From Escherichia coli (lineage in GTDB: Bacteria; Pseudomonadota; Gammaproteobacteria; Enterobacterales; Enterobacteriaceae), in assembly GCF_001677475.2 (NCBI RefSeq), contig NZ_CP015229.1: DNA of 64,000 bases; one strand, written 5' to 3'. Positions within the stretch are counted from its first letter, which is position 1. Every line of letters starts with the position of its first letter. A program made the position numbers and the translations under genes. Of this stretch, positions 25,787 to 63,008 are shown one piece after another. The notes under the pieces are model-generated. The model made no database searches. It was not told where the DNA came from and was given only the letters and a program-made list of their open reading frames with translations.

Positions 25787-26122
25787 ATGAAGTGGATTGT
25801 GATTGACACAGTTATCCAGCCATCATGTGGAATATCTTTTTCAGCCATATGGAGTAAAATAAAATTAATAATCTGGTATCAATCGGATGTTTTCTTACCT
25901 CCTGAAAGTATATTTACGCTGACTCACACAGGTATCGTACTCAATAACAAAGTGCTACCTGTAACCATTTACAACGTTGTACCATTCAATAAAAGATTCT
26001 GGGATTTAATCAAAAACAGCCAAGAATGCCCTGCAAATTCAGATAACGTATTTAATGAATGCTTTAATAACCGTTGCATTCTGCAAATATGCCCCTACGG
26101 GCTAAAACGACACAGGCCATAA
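25787..26122 (+). CDS. Hypothetical Cys-rich protein in low-GC DNA
   Basis: 111-aa ORF with SD AAGGAAA, opposite strand to late operon, C-terminal [25 protein letters not shown]. Confidence 0.45.
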
Positions 26123-26383
26123 TAAGTTTACGCATGTCTGATAGAATCTGTAGAACCTGTTTATATAAAAAGCCCCTCAGGAGAGGGGCATGCTTGCATG
26201 GTGCCGGGTGCCTCCCGATGAATTCAGTATCAGTACCCGAATCAGCATAATAAAGGAGCAGAACAGAAACATACATCACTCATATGCCCACCACCCGGGG
26301 GGATCCACCATGCAAATTTTTTCTAACAAAAGCTCCGTCAACCAGCAATGCCCAATCAACTTAATTGTGATGGATTTAACATT

Positions 26384-28067: not shown

Positions 28068-28142
<75 letters not shown>

Positions 28143-28145
28143 ATA

Positions 28146-28221
<76 letters not shown>

Positions 28222-28335: not shown

Positions 28336-28885
28336 TTAATTATCTGCCAACGTAACTATTTCACCCGCAGTATGCTCAAAACGTTCAGACTCAAGTTCAA
28401 CGCTTAACGCCATGCCCCCAAGTGCCAGCGCTGCTTTTATTATGGAGCCTGATCCCATGAAAAAGTCGGCAACCAAATCTCCCGGACGCAAACAGAATGC
28501 GCTCTGTTGCCGGGAAATACGCCCGCAGGCTTTCCTTGTTGCACCCGTTCCAGCGCCCGGACAGCTTCGCCCAGATAATGTGGTTCAGCACATTAAAGCG
28601 CTCACGCATCATGATTTCGATATCAGATGCCAGGCGATGACCACAGAACAGGTAAAGACTTCCGGCGGGTTTTAATACCCACCAGAACTGCGCCAGACAC
28701 TGATCCAGCCATTTCAGGTAATCATCGTCGCCCTTCCACTGGTTATCCCAGCCCTCGGGCTTCACTTTAAAGTATGGCGGGTCTGTGACTATCAGATCGA
28801 CAGAGTTTTCCGGTAAGGTCTGGATAAATTCCAGGAAATCAGCGTTGATTAACTCGCAGCTGGATATTTTTACAGTATTAGCCAT
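28336..28885 (-). pseudogene. DNA methyltransferase (DPPY, beta-class) interrupted by a 1-nt frameshift
   Basis: N-part has DLIVTDPPYF; SAM motif DFFMGSGS and C-terminus lie in another frame after a CCGGG run near 28480. Confidence 0.6.
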
Positions 28886-32635: not shown

Positions 32636-32899
32636 TCACTCATATTCAAAAGCAGAAAAACCAGCCTTAAGCTCAGCTTCTTTCAGAGACTGCAATGATG
32701 TGACAAATTCATTTTCACGCAAAATAAAACCATCCGTCACAAATCCATCCACAAAATAAATTAACGCAGCTCCACTCTTCCCTTGTTGAGACTGTAAACA
32801 TTTAATACGGCAGTGACTGACAATAGCGCCATTCTCAACGCGCGCAGTGTAGAGGCCATCTTCACTAAAAATTTCACGTAATTCTTCGATTTTCATCAA
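32636..32899 (-). CDS. Hypothetical protein
   Basis: 87-aa ORF downstream of hok. Confidence 0.4.
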   Translation of the reverse strand: MMKIEELREIFSEDGLYTARVENGAIVSHCRIKCLQSQQGKSGAALIYFVDGFVTDGFILRENEFVTSLQSLKEAELKAGFSAFEYE

Positions 32900-33050
32900 C
32901 AGAATCCTTCCAGATAAATAGCACTCCCCTGTTCGGGGTCCATCCCTCTTCTCCCTGCGCGCTAACTAAGTAATATGATTCTATTTACCCCAAACGCCCC
33001 CTCAAGAACCGCAACCAATGGAGTACACAAAAAGCTAATCAGCTACGCTA

Positions 33051-33148: not shown

Positions 33149-33304
33149 TTACTCCTCAGATTCGTAAGCTGTGAAGACAGCGACCTCCGTCTGGCCGGTT
33201 CGGATTCGCACCTCGCAGAGGTCTTTCCTCGTTACCAGTGCCGTCACTATGACGGTTAAACAGATGACGATCAGGGCGATTAACATCGCCTTTTGCTGCT
33301 TCAT
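33149..33304 (-). CDS. hokD: Hok/Gef-family membrane toxin (HokD/RelF-like)
   Basis: MKQQKAMLIALIVICLTVIVTALVTRKDLCEVRIRTGQTEVAVFTAYESEE, near-identical to E. coli HokD; longer overlapping in-frame ORF is mok-like. Confidence 0.9.
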   Translation of the reverse strand: MKQQKAMLIALIVICLTVIVTALVTRKDLCEVRIRTGQTEVAVFTAYESEE

Positions 33305-33594
33305 AGCCTGCTTCTCCTTGCCTTTCGGCACGTAAGAGGCTAACCTACATGTGCAAAGCATGAAATTGGCCTCAGATTAATGTTAAGCGTCTTGCCGGAC
33401 GCGTAATGTTAACTGGGGCTTTTCTCTATCTGCCGTTGGTGTTCATGCCCGAGGCAGATAGCCTCAAGCACCCGCTGCAATTCTACTTAACTCTCCTTTT
33501 CCCGCAAACCGTTTTTATCCCCAGCGGCAAATCGAATACACCACCAGCGCCACCGCAAGTGCAATTCCTACCGTTGTGAATGCTTCAGGCCAGG

Positions 33595-36306: not shown

Positions 36307-36972
36307 TCAAACAAAACCAGCCGTTTTCCGGCGTTCATACTCCTGTTTCAGCAACTCAATTGGCGTTGGTCCCGACGGGCGTTTGGGTGCCGCCAGTTGT
36401 CGCCGGACTGGCGGAATGCTCAGGCCATTACCAACATGCTTTGCCCATTTCGTCAGTTGCCGTTCTGCAAGCCGTTTTAACTCCCCTTCGGTCATCTGGC
36501 GCTCAATCCCCTTTGAACGCATCTCGAGGCAAATGTGATACAGCACAGGCTGAGACCACGGGTACTTATCACTTCCGTCGTATCGCCAGGACTCATTGCG
36601 CCAGCGGCGGTACTCCTCCATCACAGCATCCACCGTCAGACCGAATGGATTGGCTCCGCTTTCCGAAATCAGTGCCACAAACTCAGCCAGGTCCGGAGGC
36701 CATGTTTCACCCGCCCGGCAGCGGTCCATGCACTGGCGGCAGACCTGCCGGATTTGCTGCTCAGTCATCGCGCCAATCTGTGCAATCCAGAGCTTCGAAG
36801 GTGCGGCCCCGTTCTTCCGGGGCCAGCGGTTCGAATAAACCTCCCCCATGAGTTCCCACAGCTTCCAGGCCGTTTCCGTCGCTGATAAATCCGTTTTCAC
36901 GTTCCCACTGCTCACGTGCTGCCCGAATTTCCTGAACTGCCCGTGATGCGGTGCCACCTGGTGCTGCTGCAT
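36307..36972 (-). CDS. Replication protein P-like helicase loader (true start probably internal, ~36768)
   Basis: C-terminal half resembles lambda P ([16 protein letters not shown] ; [14 protein letters not shown]...IPPV); 5' part overlaps the O-like gene. Confidence 0.6.
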
Positions 36973-37801
36973 GGTTTGCCCCCTTGCTGACTGGTTTAAC
37001 CTGTGCCCTGACGTGATTTACGTGACGGGCGAATTTCTGCTCCCACTGAACCTGCGTGAAAACTTTACCCTCCTCAGTCCAGTAATCCCTGAATGCGGCA
37101 AGTTCAGCAGGTGTAAATTCCGGCTCTGGCAGAGCCATCCCCCACAACGCAGCCCGTCGTCGAAAATCCCGTGACGGATACCAGCTATCGGTCATCGGAA
37201 ATTTTCCGATGGGTTCGTTCACGCCGTCCAGGAGCACGGGGGGGGTTGTCTGTAGCGACAAAACTCCCCGCTCACTGGTCGGAGCACTCTCACGTGCGTT
37301 ATGTGTGGGGTTTAGATCTTTGGGTTCCTTTGGGTTCCGTGATCCGTTTTTGGGTGTCTTTGATGGAAAATTTGGGTGTCTTTGGTTATTTTCCATGCAG
37401 CAAAGAGTTCCGTTTTTGGGGCTGTTTTGTGCTGAAACATAACCGTTTTCGGTACTGTTTTTATTAACAGCACCAATTTTACCCACCTTTAAAGACACCC
37501 GTTTTTGGGTGTATTCAGGCTCGGCAACACTTTCTTCTACACCGATAAGTCGGTACACCACAATTTGCTTTGTTCTGCCTTTTCTCTCACCGGTATCAAT
37601 AATTAACCCAATCTCCATCAGGTGTCGTAAGCTGTCCTGCACAGTCTTTTTGTTCAGTTCCGTTACTTCTGCCAGTGCAGATACAGACGGGTATGCACAC
37701 AAATCGGCACCGCACATATCAGCAAGCCAGGTCAATACTGACTTACTGGATGAACTGCCGGTTTTCACCTTTTTAGCCCACCGTAGTGCATCGATACTCA
37801 T
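36761..37801 (-). CDS. Replication initiator (lambda O-like), contains ori iterons
   Basis: 346 aa from MSIDALRWAKKVKTGSSSSKSVLTWLADMCGADLCAYPSVSALAEV (HTH); internal repeated KTPKNG / PKEPKD encoded by iterons. Confidence 0.65.
   Translation of the reverse strand: MSIDALRWAKKVKTGSSSSKSVLTWLADMCGADLCAYPSVSALAEVTELNKKTVQDSLRHLMEIGLIIDTGERKGRTKQIVVYRLIGVEESVAEPEYTQKRVSLKVGKIGAVNKNSTENGYVSAQNSPKNGTLCCMENNQRHPNFPSKTPKNGSRNPKEPKDLNPTHNARESAPTSERGVLSLQTTPPVLLDGVNEPIGKFPMTDSWYPSRDFRRRAALWGMALPEPEFTPAELAAFRDYWTEEGKVFTQVQWEQKFARHVNHVRAQVKPVSKGANHAAAPGGTASRAVQEIRAAREQWERENGFISDGNGLEAVGTHGGGLFEPLAPEERGRTFEALDCTDWRDD
37320..37530 (-). repeat. Putative replication origin iterons inside O-like gene
   Basis: Repeats of TTTGGGTGTCTTTG / TTTGGGTTCC / CGTTTTTGGG in direct and inverted orientation. 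Confidence 0.55.
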
Positions 37802-38324
37802 ACGAACCTCTGGCAGACATTTGTTTATCTGCAAAGTAATAATGATATTGCTGACGATACGCATGCTTGAAAGCAATAGCTTTTTCTATAAGCTCGTCAG
37901 TCTCACGTTCCACAACAGATGGATCCGCAAAAAGCAGCCCGGACTCCACCACATCGCCATATTCTTTGTTTAACCCGGCGATCATGTACGTAATGCTTTT
38001 TCCGTCAGTAATTTCACAATACAACCTGAAATCGCTGATCCGGATAGCCTCCATAATTGCCGGAATCAGCGCCGTGAATTTTTCCCGCTTATCCCTGGTG
38101 TCGATAGCTTTCCAGCGTTCGAATATCTTCACCCGGTTAACGCCCAGCGCCCGTTGATCAACCTCGCCATCATTAAACGTGACGCGTTGAACATCGATGT
38201 TCGGGCGTTCTTTCAGAGCCCAGAATGCTTCCGTGATTAAAATAGTCGCCTGCTCCTGTGTCATTCCTGGTCGGCATACCCAGGCATCCAGAGCCTCACA
38301 AACCTGTTCAGGGGTGATTTTCAT
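37773..38324 (-). CDS. YdaT-like regulatory protein (cII-position gene)
   Basis: 183 aa starting MKITPEQVCEALDAW..., located between the cro-like gene and O. Confidence 0.45.
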   Translation of the reverse strand: MKITPEQVCEALDAWVCRPGMTQEQATILITEAFWALKERPNIDVQRVTFNDGEVDQRALGVNRVKIFERWKAIDTRDKREKFTALIPAIMEAIRISDFRLYCEITDGKSITYMIAGLNKEYGDVVESGLLFADPSVVERETDELIEKAIAFKHAYRQQYHYYFADKQMSARGSYEYRCTTVG

Positions 38325-38535
38325 TGTTCAACCGCCCCGCCCGCTTTGCCTTACGATATTCGTCATAAACTTTGGGGTCGTACTGAAGTTCCCCGCCGGA
38401 TGCCTCTTGCAGGCGCATCGCGCGACCTTCAGGAACCAGTTCCCCCCATGCAGCAATGCTTGCCAGCCTAACTCCTGCGGCATTGGCAAGCTTTGTTTTG
38501 CTGCCAAAAAACGCTATAGCATCAATTTTCAACAT
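38308..38535 (-). CDS. dicC: Cro-like repressor (DicC-like)
   Basis: 75 aa, MLKIDAIAFFGSKTKLANAAGVRLASIAAWGELVPEGRAMRLQEASGGELQYDPKVY, P22 Cro/DicC-type. Confidence 0.75.
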   Translation of the reverse strand: MLKIDAIAFFGSKTKLANAAGVRLASIAAWGELVPEGRAMRLQEASGGELQYDPKVYDEYRKAKRAGRLNNENHP

Positions 38536-38611
38536 ATCGAGTTCCTTAGATTTTCCTAAGGAAACTAGATCGTAGAGAAACCTAAGTCAATAAAAATTAG
38601 AATTCCCTAAT
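38536..38611 (+). promoter_or_regulatory. Divergent promoter/operator region between dicC and dicA
   Basis: Palindrome TTCCTTAG-ATTTTC-CTAAGGAA (38542-38563) plus further ACCTAAG half-sites. Confidence 0.6.
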
Positions 38612-39019
38612 ATGAAAAACGAAACCTTCGGTGCTCGCCTCTTACATAGGCGTAAAAAATTAAAACTGTCTCAGGCCGCATTAGGTAAGCTGGTCAAAGT
38701 GGCTCACGTAACAATTTCTCAATGGGAAAGAGATGAAACACAGCCGGCGGGGAAAAGATTATTCGCACTGAGCCAAGCGCTTCAGTGCTCACCGACTTGG
38801 CTTCTTTTTGGGGATGAAGATAAACAACCAGGCGAACCGATCCCGGATAATCAGCCAGCCATTCTGACAGAAGATCAAAAAGAGTTACTTCAACTGTTCG
38901 ACGCACTGCCTGAGTCAGAGCAAAAGGCCCTGTTGTCAGAGATGCGTGCTCGAGTTGAAAATTTCAACAAACTTTTTGAAGAACTACTCAAAGCTCGCAA
39001 AAGAAGCGCAAACAAATAA
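38612..39019 (+). CDS. dicA: Prophage repressor DicA-like (XRE HTH, no LexA-type peptidase domain)
   Basis: 135 aa; LSQAALGKLVKVAHVTISQWERDETQP...CSPTWLLFGDEDKQP...NFNKLFEELLKARKR resembles DicA. Confidence 0.8.
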   Translation: MKNETFGARLLHRRKKLKLSQAALGKLVKVAHVTISQWERDETQPAGKRLFALSQALQCSPTWLLFGDEDKQPGEPIPDNQPAILTEDQKELLQLFDALPESEQKALLSEMRARVENFNKLFEELLKARKRSANK

Positions 39020-39079
39020 CCCCCTTTTTTCTCCACACCCTGTAATAAAAAGCACAAAATTTCAAACAATTGTGTTTTT

Positions 39080-39150
39080 TACATCAAAAAACTTAGGTTT
39101 TTCTACATAAACAGCTTGACCACATACCTTAGGTTATTCTAAATTTCATT
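39080..39150 (+). promoter_or_regulatory. Second operator cluster (OL-like) downstream of dicA
   Basis: Repeated CTTAGG/CCTAAG half-sites (AAACTTAGGTTTTTC ... ATACCTTAGGTTATTC) like those between dicC and dicA. Confidence 0.45.
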
Positions 39151-39221: not shown

Positions 39222-39377
39222 ATGGATACTATCGATCTTGGTAACAACGAATCTCTGGTGTGCGGCGTGTTCCCAAACCAGGACGGCACATTCACCGCGA
39301 TGACGTATACCAGAAGCAAAACGTTTAAAACCGAAGCTGGCGCGCGTCGCTGGCTGGAAAGAAATTCAGGTGAGTGA
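39222..39377 (+). CDS. ydfA: YdfA-like small protein (DUF1391)
   Basis: 51 aa MDTIDLGNNESLVCGVFPNQDGTFTAMTYTRSKTFKTEAGARRWLERNSGE; SD GGGGAAATGAGG. Confidence 0.6.
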   Translation: MDTIDLGNNESLVCGVFPNQDGTFTAMTYTRSKTFKTEAGARRWLERNSGE

Positions 39378-39378
39378 T

Positions 39379-39507
39379 ATGGATTTCGACGCAATCATGG
39401 AAAAGGCTTACGAAGAATACTTCGAAGGCCTTGCCGAAGGCGAAGAAGCTCTCAGCTTCAGTGAGTTTAAACAGACGCTTTCCAGTTCGGCAAAATCTAA
39501 CGACTGA
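39379..39507 (+). CDS. ydfB: YdfB-like small acidic protein
   Basis: 42 aa MDFDAIMEKAYEEYFEGLAEGEEALSFSEFKQTLSSSAKSND; start 1 nt after ydfA stop. Confidence 0.5.
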   Translation: MDFDAIMEKAYEEYFEGLAEGEEALSFSEFKQTLSSSAKSND

Positions 39508-39536
39508 TAAGAGAAGCGGCACCGCGAGGAATCAGT

Positions 39537-39752
39537 ATGCAGAAACGAGAACCCGTCATCATCGCACCAGACTATACCGAGGATGAAATTTACGAATGGA
39601 TGTGCGGAAAGATACGCGCCATTAATTACCTGAAGCAGGCCGCTGACTACAAAGAGCGCCTCTCTAAAGAACTGGTGTCAGCGGAGCAGGATATTACCAC
39701 TCTGGCAAAAAGCGCGGCATTAAACGTTTCGCGAGTGACTGAAAACTACTGA
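39537..39752 (+). CDS. ydfC: YdfC-like protein
   Basis: 71 aa MQKREPVIIAPDYTEDEIYEWMCGKIRA... Confidence 0.55.
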   Translation: MQKREPVIIAPDYTEDEIYEWMCGKIRAINYLKQAADYKERLSKELVSAEQDITTLAKSAALNVSRVTENY

Positions 39753-39841: not shown

Positions 39842-40288
39842 CTAACCACAAAGAAATCGCATCAATTTGGATTTTGTGGGCAACTTCTCTTGTTGTTCGA
39901 TGGAGACGCCCATTTTGATCTGTGTTTTTAAGATCGCAATATCTTTAAGTGATGACCAAATATGACCATCTGTTTTTTCCAGAATTTTTAACTGAATTTT
40001 CAATTCCGAATCAGAATATTTTTCTGCATCATCAAAAAGCTGCAAATATTCTGCGGATTTTCTCATGGCATTACCTGACTTTTGTCCGAATCCATAAATC
40101 GTTTGGACGGTTGCGATCACAACAATAAAAACGCCAGAAATTTCCGGAATGAATCCGCCAATGACAGATGAACCGAGGATAACACTCACTACTGAGAGAA
40201 GTTTATCGAGACGACCAGTCGCTACAGAAAATAGTTGCTCAAGAAAATAGCCATATAAAATTCTGTCAAGAATATCATCCCGGTCCAT
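39842..40288 (-). CDS. Hypothetical two-TM membrane protein (accessory, antisense to dicB operon)
   Basis: 148 aa, SD AGGTGA; adjacent TM helices LLSVVSVILGSSVIGGFI and ISGVFIVVIATVQTIYGF; low-GC DNA. Confidence 0.55.
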   Translation of the reverse strand: MDRDDILDRILYGYFLEQLFSVATGRLDKLLSVVSVILGSSVIGGFIPEISGVFIVVIATVQTIYGFGQKSGNAMRKSAEYLQLFDDAEKYSDSELKIQLKILEKTDGHIWSSLKDIAILKTQIKMGVSIEQQEKLPTKSKLMRFLCG

Positions 40289-40746: not shown

Positions 40747-40799
40747 ATTCTGGTGACATTTGGCGGTATCAGTTTTACTCCGTGACTGCTCTGCCGCCC
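40747..40799 (+). ncRNA. dicF: DicF small RNA
   Basis: TTCTGGTGACATTTGGCGGTATCAGTTTTACTCCGTGACTGCTCTGCCGCCC followed by TTTTT, matches DicF sRNA upstream of dicB. Confidence 0.8.
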
Positions 40800-40983: not shown

Positions 40984-41172
40984 ATGGAAAAGTTATCATG
41001 CAATGCCAGTACGTCTGAACTTCGTTTCGAAATTGGCGTTATCACTGGAGAAAAAACATTTATTGAAGACGCCATTAAGCAGAGAAAACTCGAGCAGGAC
41101 CTGTTAAATGAAGTATGCATTCCTTCAATGCTGGCTCGTCTGGACCTGCTGCAAAAAGGATATAAACAATGA
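40984..41172 (+). CDS. dicB: Cell-division inhibitor DicB
   Basis: 62 aa MEKLSCNASTSELRFEIGVITGEKTFIEDAIKQRKLEQDLLNEVCIPSMLARLDLLQKGYKQ. Confidence 0.8.
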   Translation: MEKLSCNASTSELRFEIGVITGEKTFIEDAIKQRKLEQDLLNEVCIPSMLARLDLLQKGYKQ

Positions 41173-46421: not shown

Positions 46422-46734
46422 AATTCTAAAAATTCGCTTTTTTAGCGCAATGTCACTGACCTTAGTTGAACATTGTTTTTTAACGGATAGCGGTTTTTTA
46501 ACATCTTAAGCGCCCTCGACCTTTATGGTTGAGGGCGTTTTGCTATGAACGCCATCACCATTTTCCCCTCGATTATAAAACTTGAGTTATTCAGTAGTCT
46601 CCCCTCTTGCAACTCACACCCAAAACTGCCTAACGAAAAGTTATTAATTTTCAATCATATTGCTATCAGGATTTACATTTTTTCGCTGTGCTAGAAAGGG
46701 CGCATTTATGTTAGCTCGTTCAGGGAAGGTCAGC

Positions 46735-54738
<8,004 letters not shown>

Positions 54739-55319
54739 TTTTTCGTTATAATTTCTTACAGAGTGCTCCATTCGGGGCGCTCTGCTTTTACATTCGTTTA
54801 CTGTCAAACGCTCTATTAATATACCTGCATTTCCCATACCCCCCTGTTAGTTTGAAGATAGTCGAGCCTCCTTACTTTTTTTATAAAAGCTTTCACACAC
54901 GATATAACCACCTGTTCCACGCCAGCAGGAAACGAAGTACATGAGCTATTTTTGATAGCTATGATTGTTGCTATGTAGTCAAATTACGTTAATGTTTAGC
55001 TAATTACATCAAGAAGGAAGATATGTTAGGACGTACAAACAACATTAATTCATATTTCAATATTACAAATTACATCAGTACCACTCATAATAATGTATGC
55101 CTGTTAACGGAGATTTAAGTTCAGGTTGTCTTATTTATGATGGTGAAATACATTACAATGTTTTAGTTCCACCTGAATCGCGTTCGGTGTGACTATGATC
55201 ATTTTCGGTGAGTACTGCTTTGATCCAAAGGCTGGTTTTCTGTGATGATTAACCAGCCTCAGGGTATTGATGACACCACCGTTCATAACAGATCGGCATT
55301 ACTTTGCATACGTACTGCT

Positions 55320-56372
55320 TCATATTCTTGCCAAAACACTTTTTAATGCCTTTGCGAATTCATCCAGACTTATATTGTCAATTTTTTGCCCAACGACGAC
55401 TGACTCCGAGACATCGGCCATTGCGGGCCATCGCGTTTTGTAATCAGCATAAATTGCAACAACGGGGGTATTATAGGCACTTGCCATATGTAATATTGAG
55501 GTGTCAGGAGTTATTGCGATATAAGCATCTTTTATGATTGCTGCCGAACGTTTAATCGAGGGTGATAAGGATAAACGGAAGACATTATTATAACAATCCA
55601 CTAATACCCTGGCTTTATCTTCCCCTTTTGGTCCATGAACGATCACTATTGGCATATCTGTTTCATTTTTAATTTTTGCTATTAGATTTTCTGCTATCGA
55701 TAATGAAAATGTACGTTCCTGTGCACTACCTTCTAAATTGAGCGCAATGTAAGCTCCTAACGATCGCATTTCCTCGCGCACCTCATCGAGTACATCCTCG
55801 CTTAATGGCAATTCATATATTGGCCTGACTGCAGGAAAACCCGCTTCACGCATCATAAACGCCCATGTCATGGGTACGGGAGCCCTGAGATTCTGATCCA
55901 TCCGGGACGCGTTCTTACACAAAGGGGAATAGCACTTCATGGTTAAACCGACAACCTGAAAATTCGTTTTTGCTTTCAACTGACTGATAAATAACATCGT
56001 TTTCAGGTTCTTTTTACGCATCGCCTCTATACAAAGATCCGGCGTACCGTATTGCTGTGTTATGTTCTTCGCTAAATCTTTTATTTCTTTTAATGTTGCG
56101 TGATCCTGCATAGTCATTGTGACTAATGTTAATTTAGTCTGTTCAAGTTTGAGCGCATTAAAGACTTCTAAATTAATAGTCGAAGTAACAATTAAAAGAT
56201 GCTTTATTTTATGCATTTCAATCGCCCGAATAACTGGAAAGATGGCCATCGCATCGCCAATTTGATCGGGAATATGGATGACAACAAAGTCTGTTTTTCC
56301 AATATTGAAATTATTAGCTTTATAATCGTAGTAACTAAATGCAATACGTCTCAACAATGATGCTAAAAACAT
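55320..56372 (-). CDS. yeeL: Glycosyltransferase family 9 (heptosyltransferase-like) YeeL, intact
   Basis: 350-aa uninterrupted ORF between yeeJ and shiA. Confidence 0.6.
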   Translation of the reverse strand: MFLASLLRRIAFSYYDYKANNFNIGKTDFVVIHIPDQIGDAMAIFPVIRAIEMHKIKHLLIVTSTINLEVFNALKLEQTKLTLVTMTMQDHATLKEIKDLAKNITQQYGTPDLCIEAMRKKNLKTMLFISQLKAKTNFQVVGLTMKCYSPLCKNASRMDQNLRAPVPMTWAFMMREAGFPAVRPIYELPLSEDVLDEVREEMRSLGAYIALNLEGSAQERTFSLSIAENLIAKIKNETDMPIVIVHGPKGEDKARVLVDCYNNVFRLSLSPSIKRSAAIIKDAYIAITPDTSILHMASAYNTPVVAIYADYKTRWPAMADVSESVVVGQKIDNISLDEFAKALKSVLARI

Positions 56373-56686
56373 ACCTAACCTCGCCTCCCTACTGGTTATA
56401 ATGCAATGCAGTCTATCAGACTCATCAGGGTGCTATTTTGTACATATGCGGACTTTTATGTTTCATATCTCGAACCTGTGGGTGCTCTGCTTAATCCTTA
56501 AACAACACCAGCAACACCTGCGCTTTCATCTTCCATCGAATTTTTCATGTTGCCGTTAATCAGCTATAAAATCATTTGCAGATGCGCTCTGTCGAGGTAG
56601 TCTCATAAGGTTCGTTTATAGATCGACGGCAATGTGAGTTACCTTTTCCATACTAATTATAAAAAGACAGTACAAACAGGATCATT

Positions 56687-58003
56687 ATGGACTCCACGCT
56701 CATCTCCACTCGTCCCGATGAAGGGACGCTTTCGTTAAGTCGCGCCCGACGAGCTGCGTTAGGCAGTTTTGCCGGTGCCGTCGTCGACTGGTATGATTTT
56801 TTACTCTATGGCATTACCGCCGCACTGGTGTTTAATCGCGAGTTTTTCCCGCAAGTAAGCCCGGCTATGGGAACGCTCGCCGCATTTGCTACCTTTGGCG
56901 TCGGATTCCTTTTCCGTCCGCTCGGCGGTGTCATTTTCGGTCACTTTGGCGACCGACTGGGACGTAAGCGCATGTTAATGCTGACCGTCTGGATGATGGG
57001 CATCGCGACAGCCTTGATTGGTATTCTTCCTTCCTTCTCGACCATTGGGTGGTGGGCACCTATTTTGCTGGTGACACTGCGTGCCATTCAGGGATTTGCC
57101 GTCGGCGGCGAATGGGGAGGCGCAGCGTTGCTTTCCGTTGAAAGTGCGCCGGAAAATAAAAAAGCCTTTTACAGTAGCGGTGTACAAGTTGGCTACGGTG
57201 TAGGTTTACTGCTTTCAACCGGACTGGTTTCATTGATCAGTATGATGACGACCGACGAACAATTTTTAAGCTGGGGCTGGCGCATTCCTTTCCTGTTTAG
57301 CATCGTACTGGTACTGGGAGCATTGTGGGTGCGCAATGGCATGGAGGAGTCCGCGGAATTTGAACAACAGCAACATAATCAAGCGGCCGCGAAAAAACGC
57401 ATCCCGGTTATCGAAGCACTATTACGACATCCCGGTGCTTTCCTGAAGATTATTGCGCTACGACTGTGCGAGTTGCTGACGATGTACATCGTTACCGCCT
57501 TTGCACTTAATTATTCAACCCAGAATATGGGTTTACCGCGCGAACTTTTCCTTAATATAGGTTTGCTGGTCGGTGGATTAAGCTGCCTGACAATTCCCTG
57601 TTTTGCCTGGCTTGCCGATCGTTTTGGTCGCCGCAGGGTTTATATCACAGGCGCGTTGATCGGAACGTTGAGCGCATTTCCTTTCTTTATGGCGCTTGAA
57701 GCACAATCTATTTTCTGGATAGTTTTCTTCTCCATAATGCTGGCAAACATTGCGCATGACATGGTGGTGTGTGTACAACAACCGATGTTTACCGAAATGT
57801 TTGGTGCCAGTTATCGCTATAGTGGCGCTGGAGTCGGTTATCAGGTTGCCAGTGTGGTTGGTGGTGGATTTACACCTTTTATTGCCGCTGCACTCATCAC
57901 TTACTTTGCCGGGAACTGGCATAGCGTCGCCATTTATTTGCTGGCTGGATGCCTGATTTCCGCAATAACCGCTTCGTTGATGAAAGACAATCAACGCGCT
58001 TGA
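56687..58003 (+). CDS. shiA: Shikimate transporter ShiA (MFS)
   Basis: 438 aa, 12-TM MFS signature (GHFGDRLGRKRM). Confidence 0.85.
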   Translation: MDSTLISTRPDEGTLSLSRARRAALGSFAGAVVDWYDFLLYGITAALVFNREFFPQVSPAMGTLAAFATFGVGFLFRPLGGVIFGHFGDRLGRKRMLMLTVWMMGIATALIGILPSFSTIGWWAPILLVTLRAIQGFAVGGEWGGAALLSVESAPENKKAFYSSGVQVGYGVGLLLSTGLVSLISMMTTDEQFLSWGWRIPFLFSIVLVLGALWVRNGMEESAEFEQQQHNQAAAKKRIPVIEALLRHPGAFLKIIALRLCELLTMYIVTAFALNYSTQNMGLPRELFLNIGLLVGGLSCLTIPCFAWLADRFGRRRVYITGALIGTLSAFPFFMALEAQSIFWIVFFSIMLANIAHDMVVCVQQPMFTEMFGASYRYSGAGVGYQVASVVGGGFTPFIAAALITYFAGNWHSVAIYLLAGCLISAITASLMKDNQRA

Positions 58004-58104
58004 TAGTCTGGCGAAGATCATCCGATCTTCGCCTTACACTTTTGTTTCACATTCCTGTGACATACTATCGGATGTGCGGTAATTGTATGGAACAGGAGAC
58101 ACAC

Positions 58105-59559
58105 ATGAATAATAAGGGCTCCGGTCTGACCCCAGCTCAGGCACTGGATAAACTCGACGCGCTGTATGAGCAATCTGTAGTCGCTTTACGCAACGCCATT
58201 GGCAAATATATTACAAGTGGCGAATTACCTGATGAAAACGCCCGCAAACAAGGTCTTTTTGTCTATCCATCACTGACCGTAACCTGGGACGGTAGCACAA
58301 CCAATCCCCCCAAAACGCGCGCATTTGGTCGTTTTACTCACGCAGGCAGCTACACCACCACGATTACTCGCCCTACTCTCTTTCGTTCGTATCTCAATGA
58401 ACAACTTACGTTGCTGTATCAGGATTATGGTGCGCATATCTCTGTGCAACCCTCGCAGCATGAAATCCCTTATCCTTATGTCATCGATGGCTCTGAATTG
58501 ACACTTGATCGCTCAATGAGCGCTGGGTTAACTCGCTATTTCCCGACAACAGAACTGGCGCAAATTGGCGATGAAACTGCAGACGGCATTTATCATCCAA
58601 CTGAATTCTCCCCGCTATCGCATTTTGATGCGCGCCGCGTCGATTTTTCCCTCGCGCGGTTGCGCCATTATACCGGTACGCCGGTTGAACATTTTCAGCC
58701 GTTCGTCTTGTTTACCAACTACACACGTTATGTGGATGAATTCGTTCGTTGGGGATGCAACCAGATCCTCGATCCTGATAGTCCCTACATTGCCCTTTCT
58801 TGTGCTGGCGGGAACTGGATCACCGCCGAAACCGAAGCGCCAGAAGAAGCCATTTCCGACCTTGCATGGAAAAAACACCAGATGCCCGCATGGCATTTAA
58901 TTACCGCCGATGGTCAGGGTATTACTCTGGTGAATATTGGCGTGGGACCGTCAAATGCTAAAACCATCTGCGATCATCTGGCGGTGCTACGCCCGGATGT
59001 CTGGTTGATGATTGGTCACTGTGGTGGCTTACGTGAAAGCCAGGCCATTGGAGATTATGTACTTGCACACGCTTATTTACGCGATGACCACGTTCTTGAT
59101 GCGGTACTGCCGCCCGATATTCCTATTCCGAGCATTGCTGAAGTGCAACGTGCGCTTTATGACGCTACCAAGTTAGTCAGCGGCAGGCCAGGTGAGGAAG
59201 TTAAACAGCGGCTACGTACTGGCACTGTGGTAACCACAGATGACAGGAACTGGGAATTACGTTACTCAGCTTCTGCACTTCGTTTTAACTTAAGCCGGGC
59301 CGTAGCAATTGATATGGAAAGTGCAACCATTGCCGCGCAAGGATATCGTTTCCGCGTGCCATACGGGACACTACTGTGTGTTTCAGATAAACCGTTGCAT
59401 GGTGAGATTAAACTTCCCGGTCAGGCTAACCGTTTTTATGAAGGCGCTATTTCCGAACACCTGCAAATTGGCATTCGGGCGATCGATTTGCTGCGCGCAG
59501 AAGGCGACCGACTGCATTCGCGTAAATTACGAACCTTTAATGAGCCGCCGTTCCGATAA
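58105..59559 (+). CDS. amn: AMP nucleosidase
   Basis: 484 aa from MNNKGSGLTPAQALDKLDALYEQSV...; upstream ORF extension in track is not coding. Confidence 0.85.
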   Translation: MNNKGSGLTPAQALDKLDALYEQSVVALRNAIGKYITSGELPDENARKQGLFVYPSLTVTWDGSTTNPPKTRAFGRFTHAGSYTTTITRPTLFRSYLNEQLTLLYQDYGAHISVQPSQHEIPYPYVIDGSELTLDRSMSAGLTRYFPTTELAQIGDETADGIYHPTEFSPLSHFDARRVDFSLARLRHYTGTPVEHFQPFVLFTNYTRYVDEFVRWGCNQILDPDSPYIALSCAGGNWITAETEAPEEAISDLAWKKHQMPAWHLITADGQGITLVNIGVGPSNAKTICDHLAVLRPDVWLMIGHCGGLRESQAIGDYVLAHAYLRDDHVLDAVLPPDIPIPSIAEVQRALYDATKLVSGRPGEEVKQRLRTGTVVTTDDRNWELRYSASALRFNLSRAVAIDMESATIAAQGYRFRVPYGTLLCVSDKPLHGEIKLPGQANRFYEGAISEHLQIGIRAIDLLRAEGDRLHSRKLRTFNEPPFR

Positions 59560-59901
59560 TAAGTTCTGAACCTTCTTATCAAAAATAGATGTGAAGGATT
59601 AAGTAAGACATCTGGCAAATAGCCCGCAATAAACGCGGGCTGTTTGCTTCCTTGGGCGGATACGAGTTTTATTATCGTCTTAATGATTTCCACATATTAA
59701 AAGCAAGTATGCTTTCAAAACACAATTATAAAAAATTCCGCCAACAATATAAGTTTTTATAAAATTAAATATAAGATTATGGCTTTAGAATATTTTTATT
59801 TCTAATAGACGAGATTTTTCCTGTTATGATATAATATGCCGAATTAACACATGTTAACGATTTACCAGTAATGTAAATAAATTTTCGAGGAGATCATTCC
59901 A

Positions 59902-60618
59902 GTGGGACGTAAATGGGCCAATATTGTTGCTAAAAAAACGGCTAAAGACGGTGCAACGTCTAAAATTTATGCAAAATTCGGTGTAGAAATCTATGCCGCT
60001 GCCAAACAAGGTGAACCCGATCCAGAATTAAACACATCTTTAAAATTCGTTATTGAACGAGCAAAGCAGGCACAAGTTCCAAAGCATGTTATTGATAAAG
60101 CAATTGATAAAGCCAAAGGCGGCGGAGATGAAACGTTCGTGCAGGGCCGTTATGAAGGCTTTGGTCCTAATGGCTCAATGATTATCGCTGAGACCTTGAC
60201 TTCCAATGTTAACCGTACGATTGCTAACGTTCGCACAATTTTCAATAAAAAAGGCGGCAATATCGGAGCGGCAGGTTCTGTCAGCTATATGTTTGACAAT
60301 ACGGGTGTGATTGTATTTAAAGGAACAGACCCTGACCATATTTTTGAAATTTTACTTGAAGCTGAAGTTGATGTTCGTGATGTAACTGAAGAAGAAGGTA
60401 ATATTGTTATTTATACTGAACCTACTGACCTTCATAAAGAAATCGCGGCTCTAAAAGCAGCTGGAATCACTGAGTTCTCAACAACAGAATTAGAAATGAT
60501 TGCTCAATCTGAAGTTGAGCTTTCCCCAGAAGATTTAGAAATCTTTGAAGGGCTTGTTGATGCCCTTGAAGATGACGACGATGTTCAAAAAGTTTATCAT
60601 AACGTCGCAAATCTCTAA
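59902..60618 (+). CDS. yeeN: YebC/PmpR-family transcriptional regulator YeeN (GTG start)
   Basis: 238 aa; [15 protein letters not shown]... family N-terminus. Confidence 0.85.
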
Positions 60619-60627
60619 TTATATTTT

Positions 60628-60660
60628 AAAGAAATCTGTCTTTATGGCAGATTTCTTTAA
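60628..60660 (+). terminator. Rho-independent terminator after yeeN
   Basis: GAAATCTG-tctttatgg-CAGATTTC followed by TTTAAT. Confidence 0.6.
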
Positions 60661-61071
60661 TCTCATATAATTCTTATAAAAAATATAATATTCAACTCGT
60701 CATATTGATTATAAAAATACCGGTCCCAGAGAAATAATATTTATTAAATTTCCAGGTTTTCTTTTTCTGATTACAGAAGACAAAGTGGCAATTACGTTTA
60801 GTTTCCCGATAAAAACGCGACAGCAACATCCCGCATAAGGCATTTTTCTCTTTATCTTTGTACGATACTTCATGGAACAGAGTTTTTGACCTTGTGAATC
60901 GTGATGTCTGTTGGGGAGGGGCAATTTGCTCACTGAAGCGTGAGACTCGATTAAGCGCACGAAACACAGAAATCAAAAAACCCGGTCACTTTTTTACAAG
61001 GTAACCGGGTAAAAATAATTTTTATTTTTTAATTGTTTTGAGACTCATAGAGATGTCTCAAAACTAAAATT

Positions 61072-61147
61072 TGGCTCCTCTGACTGGACTCGAACCAGTG
61101 ACATACGGATTAACAGTCCGCCGTTCTACCGACTGAACTACAGAGGA
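61072..61147 (-). tRNA. asnW: tRNA-Asn (GUU)
   Basis: Reverse complement identical to the asnT sequence. Confidence 0.95.
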
Positions 61148-61247
61148 ATCGTGAGAACGAGGCGAATATTAGCGATGCCCATCCACAATGTCAAAGCCTG
61201 TTTTTTAAATTTGAAATCGTTTGCTGAAATAATCTGCATTTTGTCGT

Positions 61248-62735
61248 TTATTCCGACACAACTGGCTTTTTTTCACACTTTTGCGGCTCGGGTCGAGGGT
61301 ATTTCCATAGCCAACGTCCAGTAACCATTCGCCAGTAAAACAGCACGGCCCGCACAGCCCAGTCGGCAAACATTCCCATCCAGACACCAACCACACCCCA
61401 GCCAAGCATGATTCCCAGCACATAACCGACTACAACCCGGCAACCCCACATGCTCAACATAGAAACCCACATGGCGTAACGGGCATCACGAGCACCTTTA
61501 AATCCAGCGGGTAGCACCCATGAGGCGGACCAAATAGGCATAAATAAAGCATTTAGCCAAATCAGAATCACAACGACATGTTTAACCTGTGGATCCTGGG
61601 TGTAAAACGATGCCATAAGCCCGGCAAAGGGAGCCGTTAGCCAGGCGATGGCCGTTAACCCAAGAGTGGACAGCCAGAACACATGCCGCAACTGAATCTC
61701 TGCTTGCGCTATCTGCCCTACCCCCAACCTTCGGCCTGTAATGATCGTAGAAGCAGAGCCGAGCGCACTTCCGGGTAAGTTGATAAGAGCCGCAATTGAA
61801 AACGCGATAAAATTTCCGGCAATAACACTGGTCCCCATCCCGGCAACGAACATTTGGGTTAATAACCGACCACTGGTAAATAACACTGATTCGACACTCG
61901 CGGGAATACCAATCCCCATGACTTCCCAGATAATGCTAAAATTCAGCGGTTTAAAATAGCTCTTTAACGAAATCCTTAGCGCAGGATTAAAACCAATCGC
62001 CAGCACCCACAAAATTGCAACTGCGCCAATATAACGAGAAATGGTTAAACCCAACCCAGCCCCGACAAATCCCAGTCCCGGCCAGGAGAAAAGGCCGTAA
62101 ATCAATATGCCGCTAATAATAATATTAAGAATATTCAGGCTACCGTTAATCAGTAGCGGTATTTTCGTATTCCCTGCACCACGAAGTGCCCCGCTACCAA
62201 TTAGAGTGATGGCAGCTGCTGGATAACTGAGTACCGTCAGCTCCAGATAAGTCAACGCCAGTGCTTTAACTTCTGTCGTGGCATCACCCGCGACGAAATC
62301 AATAATTTGCTCGCCAAAATGATGAATAAGCGTTGCCAACAGTACGGCAAACAACGTCATGATCACCAATGACTGCCGCGTCGCCACCCTCGCTCGTCGT
62401 CGATCCCGCTTACCGAGACTAAATGCCACAACGACAGTAGTACCAAGATCGATAGCAGCAAAAAAAGCCATAATGACCATATTGAAGCTGTCCGCCAATC
62501 CCACGCCGGCCATCGCATCTTTTCCCAGCCAGCTGACCAGAAAAGTGCTCAGGACCCCCATCAGCAGGACACAGGCATTCTCCATGAAGATAGGAACAGC
62601 AAGCGGGGTTATCTCGCGCCAGAACAACACTTTGTAGCTCTTGCGTTTAGCGTGCCAGCGAGTGCCGTGAACAACCTGGCGTAAAGCAGAGGAGATATTC
62701 AAAGCCGACCTTAATTGCAGAAAGTGAAACCACAT
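61248..62735 (-). CDS. yeeO: MATE-family efflux transporter YeeO (ORF open to 62888; start at MWFHFLQ chosen)
   Basis: 12-TM MATE-like protein between asnW and asnU. Confidence 0.8.
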   Translation of the reverse strand: MWFHFLQLRSALNISSALRQVVHGTRWHAKRKSYKVLFWREITPLAVPIFMENACVLLMGVLSTFLVSWLGKDAMAGVGLADSFNMVIMAFFAAIDLGTTVVVAFSLGKRDRRRARVATRQSLVIMTLFAVLLATLIHHFGEQIIDFVAGDATTEVKALALTYLELTVLSYPAAAITLIGSGALRGAGNTKIPLLINGSLNILNIIISGILIYGLFSWPGLGFVGAGLGLTISRYIGAVAILWVLAIGFNPALRISLKSYFKPLNFSIIWEVMGIGIPASVESVLFTSGRLLTQMFVAGMGTSVIAGNFIAFSIAALINLPGSALGSASTIITGRRLGVGQIAQAEIQLRHVFWLSTLGLTAIAWLTAPFAGLMASFYTQDPQVKHVVVILIWLNALFMPIWSASWVLPAGFKGARDARYAMWVSMLSMWGCRVVVGYVLGIMLGWGVVGVWMGMFADWAVRAVLFYWRMVTGRWLWKYPRPEPQKCEKKPVVSE

Positions 62736-62895
62736 TTCAAATGATGAGGGAGAATCAGCAAAGCTGCAAAGATTTTCGCCAACAAATTGTCTGCAAATGC
62801 AACAAACTGTTGATAGAAACGGCAAACAGTTGGGGAATTTAAAAATCGGGTTTGACAAAAGATTTTTCGCCGTTAAGATGTGCCTCAACAGCGAT

Positions 62896-62971
62896 TCCTC
62901 TGTAGTTCAGTCGGTAGAACGGCGGACTGTTAATCCGTATGTCACTGGTTCGAGTCCAGTCAGAGGAGCCA
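62896..62971 (+). tRNA. asnU: tRNA-Asn (GUU)
   Basis: Identical to asnT sequence. Confidence 0.95.
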
Positions 62972-62980
62972 AATTTCTAA

Positions 62981-63008
62981 AAAGCCCGCTTTTTTAGCGG
63001 GCTTTTTG
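62981..63008 (+). terminator. Bidirectional rho-independent terminator between asnU and cbl
   Basis: AGCCCGC-TTTTTTA-GCGGGCT flanked by A-run and T-run. Confidence 0.7.

Follow-up and report, generated by a model that had tools for sequence, protein, structure and literature searches.

The locus, analysed within a window of 64 kb (the whole stretch of DNA under study), contains two divergent open reading frames, dicC and dicA, with 76 bp between them; they encode 75 and 135 aa and are the divergent genes of the preliminary description. Together with their neighbours, they make up the following set of genes:

36307–36972, minus strand: helicase loader of the lambda P family (Pfam Phage_lambda_P, E = 1.5e-16, profile positions 32–161 of 162)
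36761–37876, minus strand, probable start at 37801: O-like replication initiator (Pfam DnaT domain, E = 2.8e-17, and HTH_36)
37773–38324, minus strand: YdaT-family gene in the cII position (Pfam YdaT_toxin, 26.5 bits, cut-off 21)
38308–38535, minus strand: dicC, Cro analogue of 75 aa, first gene of the rightward-equivalent (lytic) operon (NCBIfam NF007282)
38612–39019, plus strand: dicA, CI-analogue repressor of 135 aa (NCBIfam NF007257, 'transcriptional repressor DicA')
39222–39752, plus strand: ydfA (39222–39377), ydfB (39379–39507) and ydfC (39537–39752), the start of the leftward operon
40748–40799, plus strand: DicF small RNA (Rfam RF00039, 77 bits for a gathering score of 48, full length)
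40984–41172, plus strand: dicB, cell-division inhibitor of 62 aa (an open reading frame, annotated there as dicB in the 99%-identical strain GB089)

The repressor pair and its prophage setting

DicC matches NF007282 over its full length (positions 1–75 of 75; 167.9 bits, cut-off 130) as well as the Pfam family P22_Cro (PF14549; E = 3e-13, 49.7 bits, cut-off 30.2); it is 100% identical to WP_000912290.1 of strain CFSAN018748 and 84% identical to DicC of K-12 Qin. DicA likewise matches NF007257 from end to end (positions 1–135 of 135; 237.3 bits, cut-off 101) and is 100% identical to WP_000787424.1 and 62% identical to its K-12 Qin counterpart. Beyond dicA, the order is ydfA, ydfB, ydfC and, further on, the DicF RNA, dicB, exo, xis and int, and the switch region displays full synteny with K-12 Qin and phage mEp460_ev081. 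The ydfABC genes were recognised by DUF1391 (E = 3e-29) and PHROGs 751 and 1744, in the order annotated in K-12 and other strains. Altogether, the curated family models, the synteny and the operator homology described below, with a palindrome that aligns with K-12 Oc, bear out the proposal of a DicA/DicC-type switch: the locus is an ordinary variant of this repressor switch, in a lambda-like type of E. coli prophage, and the system is already well studied.

DicA is made up of a P22-C2-type HTH domain (residues 6–66), a linker and a C-terminal two-helix hairpin (residues 87–134). Pfam reports only HTH families on the 135 residues (HTH_3, residues 13–64, E = 7.8e-14) and no match to Peptidase_S24 at E ≤ 0.01, while the AlphaFold model has no beta fold, its five HTH helices being followed by the linker and two C-terminal helices. 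The sole Ala-Gly pair of the protein (residues 46–47) is located within the HTH domain, outside the linker, so that none of the marks of LexA/CI-type self-cleaving repressors (S24 domain, Ser/Lys dyad, linker Ala-Gly) is found in DicA. In a PDB search the N-terminal domain of P22 C2 was recovered with E = 1e-21, the DicA matches ending at residue 69, and the model superposes on 3JXB with a TM score of 0.97 (0.5 Å). The earlier claim of a repressor restricted to an HTH and a dimerisation region, with no LexA-like peptidase, is thus upheld by both Pfam and the model. Since DicA lacks an S24 module, RecA-stimulated self-cleavage cannot be the induction route; DicA has indeed been counted among the short non-cleavable repressors of the GfoR/GtgR type (Lemire 2011, PMC3121763). 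Dimerisation probably involves the C-terminal hairpin. The reading of this region as a RovA/SlyA winged helix, put forward by Yun et al., was set aside: the model shows two helices and no wing, and the top 50 fold matches include no MarR-family protein.

On the other side of dicC, the YdaT-family protein (183 aa) also matches PHROG 163, 'CII-like transcriptional activator' (E = 1e-41), and in CP-933P YdaT is the functional equivalent of CII (PMC9986795, PMC8630535). Iteron-like repeats (ori) lie inside the O-like gene and are kept as far as Edwardsiella phage EPP-1; in relatives that are 97–100% identical, this gene is annotated 'DnaT-like ssDNA-binding domain-containing protein'. The switch had been described as flanked by an intact replication module, unlike that of Qin. 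This stands for the replication genes themselves (YdaT/CII-like, O-like and lambda P), which lie beside dicC where K-12 Qin has the remnants ydfX and ydfW, but 'intact' does not demonstrably extend to the whole prophage: an IS21-type IstB fragment, adjoining tail-fibre genes, forms the left end of the window, and no repeat of at least 14 nt of the tRNA-Ser end (attL) was found within the 64-kb window. As the left attachment site is absent from the window, the element may be defective. The open reading frames for integrase (341 aa), exonuclease, O, P, Q, lysis and morphogenesis are nevertheless long and uninterrupted. A 148-aa frame at 39842–40288 has no informative family in PADLOC, Pfam or NCBIfam.

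Candidate operators on both sides of dicA

The two intergenic stretches that border dicA contain the following predicted sites and promoters:

38542–38563, no strand: O1, equivalent of K-12 Oc, perfect palindrome TTCCTTAG-ATTTTC-CTAAGGAA
38562–38590, minus strand: putative dicC promoter, −35 TTGACT (38590–38585), 17-nt spacer, −10 TAGTTT (38567–38562)
38571–38586, no strand: O2, CGTAGAGAAACCTAAG, 1 mismatch, in the spacer of the putative dicC promoter
38596–38611, no strand: O3, ATTAGAATTCCCTAAT, abutting the dicA ATG, with a −10-like hexamer TAGAAT at 38598–38603
39092–39107, no strand: OL1, CTTAGGTTTTTCTACA, just 5' of the −35 of the leftward promoter
39116–39145, plus strand: leftward early promoter from the promoter scan (TTGACC-18-TAAATT), equivalent of K-12 dicBp and lambda pL
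39128–39143, no strand: OL2, CTTAGGTTATTCTAAA, between the −35 and −10 of the leftward promoter

O1 is a perfect 8+8 inverted repeat (TTCCTTAG-N6-CTAAGGAA, 0 mismatches) that spans −10/+1 of the putative dicC promoter. It aligns column for column with K-12 Oc (TTGTTAGTCATAACTAACAA), which is bound by DicA in vivo (Yun 2012, PMC3441716), and it is kept at −66 from the dicA ATG in the diverged loci L075–L083. O2, which is 94% complementary to OL1, is kept in L039–L082. The TTAG/CTAA core of O3 does not vary among the four immunity alleles or in any of the diverged loci; in analogy to OR3 of lambda, this site may serve the autoregulation of dicA, whose mRNA would be leaderless. The dicC promoter is given as putative because it falls below the threshold of the promoter scan and was read off the sequence, its −35 containing a GTCAA that is invariant in the four-way alignment. 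As for the leftward promoter, its CTTGACC aligns with the DNA of K-12 dicBp, which is repressed by DicA (PMC10448788). OL1 is kept in position and sequence in the diverged loci, and OL2, with its exact TTAG-N6-CTAA core, in all relatives.

What sets these sites apart is their clustering. Matches to CTTAGN6CTAAG with up to 2 mismatches number 9 in the 64 kb for 15.45 expected, so the total is not enriched, but five of the nine fall in the two intergenic stretches beside dicA (at 38545, 38571 and 38596, and at 39092 and 39128), where about 0.07 would be expected in 279 bp (P about 1e-8, Poisson estimate). Exact TTAG-N6-CTAA occurs three times in the window (38546, 38597 and 39129), in each case beside dicA, with 0.48 expected per 64 kb. 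Positions and cores are fixed in relatives whose DicA is 75–86% identical, where the flanks have diverged and the 6-bp spacers vary; the more distant allele of mEp460 keeps the N6 geometry with another half-site, TTGAG-N6-CTCAA. The preliminary description had noted palindromic operators between the divergent genes and similar half-sites downstream of dicA. Both are recovered, the former refined from the palindrome at 38542–38563 to three sites and the latter to two, which suggests a three-site OR and a two-site OL overlapping the divergent and leftward promoters.

As isolated clones, Om and Oa, the K-12 equivalents of O2 and O3, were not bound by DicA (PMC3441716), so that O2 and O3 may depend on cooperativity or may be no DicA sites at all. 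The prophage part of the window has no copy of the YdaT site published as TTGATT-N6-AATCAA; the single match with up to 2 mismatches lies at 57977, outside the prophage, and an establishment promoter could therefore not be placed by means of this operator.

A switch probably released by Rem

The preliminary description had suggested searching the prophage for an antirepressor, and this search yielded a Rem homologue, 5.7 kb away from the switch in the nin-like region:

32636–32896, minus strand: rem homologue, 86 aa, candidate DicA antirepressor, between hokD and a DUF968 gene as in Qin
32978–33005, minus strand: promoter-like site 5' of rem, TTGAGG-16-TAGAAT, past the hokD terminator (33078–33061)

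The protein is 70% identical to K-12 Rem (E = 6e-39, with a 4-residue insertion) and 71% to the protein annotated as Rem in strain CFSAN018748; PADLOC, Pfam and NCBIfam hold no informative family for it. The neighbours of rem are the same in K-12 Qin and phage mEp460_ev081, and the −10 TAGAAT of the predicted promoter is kept in K-12. Rem has been described as a DicA antirepressor and DicA/DicC as a bistable switch (Ragunathan 2023, PMC10448788), K-12 Rem causing a 165-fold derepression of dicBp (PMC10448788). An AlphaFold model of a DicA-(GGGGS)5-Rem fusion gave no confident interface (pTM 0.33, pLDDT about 50–65 for the Rem part). A given Rem allele can accompany different DicA HTH alleles, a given DicA allele can accompany different Rem alleles, and the most conserved part of DicA is its C-terminal region; this combination fits a Rem target outside the specificity-determining helices.

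We propose, with a probability of about 0.85, that the locus is the immunity switch of a lambdoid prophage inserted at tRNA-Ser(cga)/mtfA in an Escherichia chromosome, a heteroimmune DicA/DicC allele in which DicA represses, DicC confers bistability and Rem induces. DicA, the CI analogue, would bind as a dimer to the predicted 16-bp sites with a TTAG-N6-CTAA core: O1 and O2, which overlap the dicC promoter, O3, which abuts the dicA start, and the two sites bracketing the leftward promoter that would drive ydfABC-DicF-dicB-exo-xis-int. Occupancy of these operators would shut both early promoters and, by analogy with K-12, that of O1 would also stimulate dicA transcription. DicC, the Cro analogue, would bind the same region and repress dicA, hence the bistability, and the YdaT-family protein would fill the position of CII. 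Induction would most likely result from the inactivation of DicA by Rem, whose presumed target is the conserved C-terminal part of the repressor; spontaneous or stress-driven flips of the bistable switch would add to it. In this scheme, the gene identities, the positions, clustering and conservation of the sites, the absence of a cleavage domain and the presence of rem were seen here, whereas DicA–Oc binding, repression of dicCp and dicBp, activation of dicA, derepression by Rem and repression of dicA by DicC come from K-12 experiments and are extended by analogy to the present allele, for which they would hold too. On the DicC side, ChIP-seq in K-12 gave a peak on either side of dicA, two in all, with the palindrome TT(A/C/T)G...C(G/A/T)AA (PMC11430063).

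A different biological role, although not a different mechanism, would follow if the prophage were defective and the switch had been domesticated by the host as a silencer of toxic genes (dicB, DicF, hokD and lysis genes), flipping stochastically or, through DicA instability, with temperature or urea, and leaving Rem without a physiological role. We regard this as possible, though clearly the less probable of the two. In K-12 Qin, spontaneous derepression that does not depend on Rem affects about 1% of the cells, induction by urea and heat runs through DicC (PMC10448788), and DicA–Oc binding is weaker at 37 °C (PMC3441716); here, the IS21-type fragment by the tail-fibre genes, the lack of a visible attL and the close relatives with frameshifted integrase, portal or other genes also point to decay. 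Conversely, the uninterrupted integrase, exonuclease, O, P, Q, lysis and morphogenesis frames of the window argue against it, as does the presence of the same module in PPompW prophages and in mEp460_ev081, which is called functional (PMC10448788) and also carries rem.

It is unlikely that induction instead follows an SOS circuit of the Gifsy type, in which the antirepressor gene or another prophage locus is under direct LexA control and kept repressed, and DNA damage induces through LexA cleavage. Gifsy repressors, which belong to the same class, do operate in this way (PMC3121763), UV induction yielded the Cronobacter phage phiES15, whose DicA-type repressor is 51.7% identical over residues 20–135, and K-12 dicC was reported to be high after norfloxacin, as 'data not shown' (PMC11430063). 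A PWM scan of the window also picked up two very strong LexA-box-like 20-mers, at 28858–28877 (score 22.2) and 37453–37472 (21.1), scores that none of 60 random 64-kb sequences attained (none ≥21, maximum 18.3). Both, however, lie away from rem and from the switch, one over codons 3–9 of a truncated methyltransferase frame and the other between the ori iterons within the O-like gene. In EPP-1, the one diverged relative found, the latter has lost its left half although the iterons are kept, and a comparable box was found neither in K-12 Qin nor in those regions of mEp460 and phiES15 that were sampled. We thus rejected these boxes as the induction trigger: they are misplaced and absent from the other DicA-type elements sampled. 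Near rem itself, the PWM scan found no LexA box and the alignment of its upstream region in four strains no CTGT-N8-ACAG-like element, so that rem does not have the LexA box of a Gifsy antirepressor promoter. Finally, a YdaS/YdaT toxin–antitoxin-like module formed by dicC and ydaT is very improbable, the Pfam names (PF15943, PF06254; YdaT_toxin above its cut-off, but YdaS_toxin on DicC at 20.4 bits, below its cut-off of 30) and the RefSeq name 'toxin YdaT family protein' for the dicC neighbour being outweighed by the far better fit of DicC to P22_Cro and NF007282, by the CII-like PHROG assignment of the YdaT family and by the demonstration that YdaS and YdaT are Cro and CII analogues and no toxin–antitoxin pair (PMC8630535, PMC5917428, PMC9986795).

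Returning to the proposed Rem-released switch, the non-cleavable DicA, Oc, Rem and the DicA/DicC bistability are all already published; the sole local novelty is the heteroimmune operator variant, CTTAG versus GTTAG, together with the shuffling of Rem alleles relative to DicA HTH alleles. The outer operator bases are CCTTAG...CTAAGG here and TGTTAG...CTAACA in K-12 and, with HTH helices 2 and 3 of DicA also differing, the two alleles are probably heteroimmune. The recognition helix is identical to that of the GTTAG-type GB089 allele, and helix 2 contains SQA where the outer base is C and TQR where it is G, a covariation that is based on only three alleles because the IMG/VR scan gave mostly the same immunity allele. 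It is conceivable, but doubtful, that the CTTAG allele forms a separate immunity group whose specificity derives from the residues that follow the conserved Gln with which helix 2 begins rather than from the recognition helix, that Rem targets the conserved C-terminal hairpin and thereby acts across immunity groups, and that the LexA-like boxes add an SOS input. If so, a single Rem would induce several heteroimmune DicA-type prophages together in polylysogenic strains of E. coli such as STEC. Of 5426 complete E. coli genomes, 3708 contain similar DNA, and in 750 the match covers 80% or more of the 1-kb query; with up to 7 matching places per genome, Rem-type cross-talk could coordinate the induction of several prophages, including the Stx-associated PPompW. 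The switch would control DicB and DicF, and with them cell-division inhibition and phage exclusion, plus induction if the prophage is active; its importance beyond annotation is small.

Comparison with known systems

The closest described system is that of K-12 Qin (PMC3441716, PMC10448788, PMC11430063), with which the locus shares the gene order (dicC divergent from dicA, then ydfABC, DicF and dicB), both repressor families above cut-off, a 135-aa DicA with no cleavage domain, rem between hokD and the DUF968 gene, and operators that have the TTAG-N6-CTAA core and align in position to either side of dicA. It differs from it in DicA, which is 62% identical with altered HTH helices 2 and 3, and, unlike the Qin remnant, the present prophage contains replication, Q, lysis, morphogenesis and int genes. 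PPompW of STEC (LC5678xx records) shares the immunity allele (DicA 97.8% identical, DNA 95%) and the O gene of this prophage, but is integrated at ompW and not at tRNA-Ser. The architecture of mEp460_ev081 (LR597641) is also the same, including rem, hok, dicB, exo and int, but its DicA is only 53% identical and its sites are of the TTGAG-N6-CTCAA type.

In its N-terminal domain, DicA resembles P22 C2 (phage 21, 434 family), with 62% identity and a superposition at 0.5 Å; the likeness extends to DicC, a member of the P22_Cro family, and to tripartite OR plus OL operators built from short palindromes. The half-sites are 4 bp apart in P22 and 6 bp apart in the present sites, and where P22 C2 (216 aa) has a C-terminal S24 self-cleaving oligomerisation domain, DicA has a helical hairpin of about 50 residues. 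An HTH domain with a helical C-terminal hook bound by a small antirepressor is also the design of SinR/SinI and of the SPbeta-group repressor/AimX, which come just after isolated HTH domains in the Foldseek search with the DicA model (1B0N, E = 3.8e-4; also 9SF2 and 9IAQ). At about 20% identity and a full-length rmsd of 7–10 Å, this is a likeness of design, and we do not claim homology.

The repressors of Gifsy-1, -2 and -3 (GfoR, GtgR and GfhR; PMC3121763) resemble DicA in their size of about 135 aa and in not being cleaved; they are inactivated, as DicA would be by Rem, by small trans-acting antirepressors encoded outside the immunity region, which can act on non-cognate repressors (PMC3121763). 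There, however, the antirepressor genes lie behind a LexA box, by a dinI homologue, neither of which accompanies rem here. Last, although PaaR2 is unrelated to DicA in sequence, the PaaR2/YdaS/YdaT system of CP-933P likewise combines a repressor, a divergent Cro analogue and YdaT as CII analogue in a bistable switch (PMC8630535, PMC9986795), and its repressor gene is leaderless, as dicA appears to be.

Identity and genetic setting of the switch

The divergent gene pair of the 38308-39150 stretch, whose ORFs are separated by 76 bp, belongs to the DicA/DicC family on all its defining features testable in silico, as claimed in the preliminary description, with both products scoring above the NCBIfam cut-offs:

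38308-38535, minus strand: dicC (Cro analogue), 75 aa, NF007282 'DicC' (167.9 bits, cut-off 130)
38612-39019, plus strand: dicA (CI-analogue repressor), 135 aa, NF007257 'transcriptional repressor DicA' (full-length match, 237 bits, cut-off 101)

The Pfam matches of DicA are to HTH families only (HTH_3, residues 13-64) and that of DicC is P22_Cro. DicA and DicC are respectively 62% and 84% identical to the proteins of Qin, the cryptic prophage of E. coli K-12, and each has a RefSeq counterpart of 100% identity in E. coli strain CFSAN018748. Of the 5426 complete E. coli genomes, 3708 contain DNA similar to the 1-kb region used as query, which in 750 is matched over 80% or more of its length. 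The records of the STEC prophages PPompW also contain the switch region, with dicA and dicC annotations.

The switch is carried by a lambdoid prophage integrated beside tRNA-Ser(cga), mtfA and tRNA-Asn:

Leftward of dicC, minus strand, early genes: YdaT-family (CII-like) gene, O-like initiator (DnaT domain, internal iterons), lambda-P-family gene
Leftward of dicC, minus strand, later genes: DUF1627, hokD/sok, rem homologue, DUF968, RusA, Q, lysis and morphogenesis genes
Rightward of dicA, first part: ydfA, ydfB, ydfC, 148-aa ORF (opposite strand), DicF RNA (Rfam, 77 bits)
Rightward of dicA, second part: dicB, DUF1482, 823-aa exonuclease, DUF4224 excisionase-like gene, 341-aa integrase
1-300, left edge of the window, beside tail-fibre genes: C-terminal part of an IS21-family IstB-like ATPase
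39842-40288, minus strand, located between ydfC and DicF and opposite in direction to the leftward operon: the 148-aa ORF, with two hydrophobic segments

The gene order on either side of the switch therefore matches the lambda layout: dicA corresponds to cI, lying between OR and OL and transcribed in the direction of the pL operon, and dicC corresponds to cro. A replication module adjoins the switch, unlike in Qin, in agreement with the preliminary description; intactness cannot be claimed for the whole prophage, given the IstB fragment and the lack of an attL repeat within the window, so that the left border may be disrupted or lie outside it. The sole match of the 148-aa ORF was PHROG 6315 (unknown function), with none in Pfam, NCBIfam or PADLOC; since its position is occupied by different genes in other strains, the interval between ydfC and DicF appears to be a slot for morons or cargo. 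The prophage also carries hokD with the sok antisense RNA (33149-33473; Rfam, 112.8 bits), an STnc100 sRNA homologue (26167-26342; 93.7 bits) and an IraM-like anti-adaptor gene (25787-26122), and is 99.2% identical to one found in STEC strains. The chromosomal flank (46500-64000; Ig-like adhesin, shiA, amn, yeeO and tRNA-Asn copies) shares only ~96% identity with its best matches among complete E. coli genomes. A divergent Escherichia lineage is a possible host.

Operators, promoters and specificity

The palindromic operator described between the divergent genes is a perfect inverted repeat, TTCCTTAG-ATTTTC-CTAAGGAA (O1, 38542-38563). Searching the whole 64-kb window for CTTAGN6CTAAG with at most two mismatches yielded nine matches, below the chance expectation of 15.45, five of which fall on either side of dicA, in a total of 279 bp of non-coding sequence (~1e-8 by our own Poisson estimate), including the related sites described downstream of the gene:

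38545, 38571 and 38596: OR sites O1, O2 and O3, between dicC and dicA
39092 and 39128: OL1 and OL2, downstream of dicA
38590-38585 and 38567-38562, minus strand: promoter-like hexamers TTGACT and TAGTTT read from the sequence, 17 nt apart, with O2 inside the spacer and O1 over the -10/+1 region
38596-38614: O3 adjoining the dicA ATG, with a TAGAAT hexamer 8 nt upstream of the ATG
39116-39145: TTGACC-18-TAAATT (promoter scan), with OL2 within and OL1 just upstream

The exact TTAG-N6-CTAA core occurs three times in the window, against 0.48 expected, each time flanking dicA, and successive OR sites lie 26 and 25 bp apart, measured between centres. The lambda cI mRNA is leaderless; the TAGAAT hexamer and the absence of a Shine-Dalgarno sequence in 38596-38614 suggest that the dicA mRNA may be leaderless as well, like those of lambda cI and CP-933P paaR2. 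The latter has been described as leaderless (PMC8630535).

O1 aligns column for column with K-12 Oc, TTGTTAGTCATAACTAACAA, which is bound by DicA in vivo and inactivated by one change in CTAAC, the K-12 equivalents of O2 and O3 showing no DicA binding on their own (PMC3441716). In K-12, DicC ChIP-seq peaks lie on both sides of dicA, with the palindrome TT(A/C/T)G...C(G/A/T)AA (PMC11430063). In IMG/VR loci where DicA is only 75-86% identical and the flanking DNA has diverged, the five sites are all found at unchanged positions with the TTAG/CTAA core preserved, while the 6-bp spacers vary; more distant alleles display the same geometry with other half-sites (TTGAG-N6-CTCAA in phage mEp460_ev081). 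Compared with K-12, both the DNA-binding helices of DicA and the outer operator bases differ (TGTTAG...CTAACA versus CCTTAG...CTAAGG here), and the two alleles are therefore probably heteroimmune. The allele of strain GB089 shares the recognition helix of the window DicA but has GTTAG-type sites, and its helix 2 starts with 'TQR' instead of 'SQA', a hint, from three alleles only, that the outer base could be read from helix 2.

Repressor structure and inactivation

Residues 2-69 of DicA match the DNA-binding domain of P22 C2 (E=1e-21), and superposition of the AlphaFold model (mean pLDDT 83.7) on 3JXB, the complex of P22 C2 with its operator, gives 0.5 Å. The C-terminal part, the most conserved across alleles, is modelled as a linker of ~20 residues followed by helices 87-98 and 101-134. 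The repressor, as previously proposed, has no self-cleavage domain and is not in the self-cleaving CI/LexA family: the model contains no beta structure in the C-terminal part, Pfam gives no S24 match and the linker has no Ala-Gly, so RecA-stimulated self-cleavage would not be expected.

A search of the prophage for an antirepressor, as suggested in the preliminary description, found a homologue of Rem, the small antirepressor of DicA in Qin:

32636-32896, minus strand: rem homologue, 86 aa, 70% identical to K-12 Rem
32900-32975, minus strand: rem 5' leader

The gene lies between hokD and a DUF968 gene, an arrangement shared by Qin and the functional phage mEp460_ev081; upstream are the hokD terminator and a promoter-like sequence, TTGAGG-16-TAGAAT, with a -10 that is also conserved in K-12. 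The leader contains a small hairpin (CCCCGAACAGGGG here versus CCCTTAAAGGG in K-12) whose differences between alleles are compensatory, and which may regulate the translation of rem. Rem and DicA HTH alleles are reassorted, one Rem occurring with different DicAs and one DicA with different Rems: among the window and four compared loci (L001, L002, L003 and L084), the K-12-type Rem is paired with three DicA immunity types and the 86-aa Rem of the window with two. This reassortment suggests that Rem targets the conserved part of DicA and could act across immunity types. An AlphaFold fusion model gave no usable Rem-DicA interface.

A LexA-box matrix scan of the window revealed two very strong sites, with none of such strength in 60 random 64-kb sequences:

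28858-28877: AGCTGGATATTTTTACAGTA, score 22.2, overlapping codons 3-9 of an apparently truncated or frameshifted ORF for a DNA methyltransferase (28397-28885, minus strand), with the tRNA-Thr and tRNA-Gly genes of the prophage (28068-28221) downstream of it
37453-37472: palindrome TACTGTTTTTATTAACAGCA, score 21.1 (none of at least 21 in the random set), within the O-like replication gene and flanked by iteron-like repeats CCGTTTTTGGG, the probable origin

The second box is conserved in 97-100% identical relatives, but Edwardsiella phage EPP-1 retains the iterons and not the box; no comparable site occurs in Qin or in those regions of mEp460 and phiES15 that were sampled. Neither box lies near rem, and on these grounds a Gifsy-type LexA circuit was not adopted.

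The mode of switching is already answered in outline by the literature. Short Gifsy repressors are not cleaved but inactivated by antirepressors, and DicA was named in the same group (Lemire et al., PMC3121763). Qin Rem derepresses the DicA-controlled dicB promoter 165-fold, and DicA/DicC is a bistable switch that flips spontaneously in ~1% of cells, and also with urea or heat (Ragunathan et al., PMC10448788). The preliminary reading is correct, but the system is already known and holds nothing surprising to specialists. The overall design of DicA is also similar to that of SinR and of repressors of the SPbeta type, whose inactivation is brought about by small proteins, but this is no more than a resemblance.
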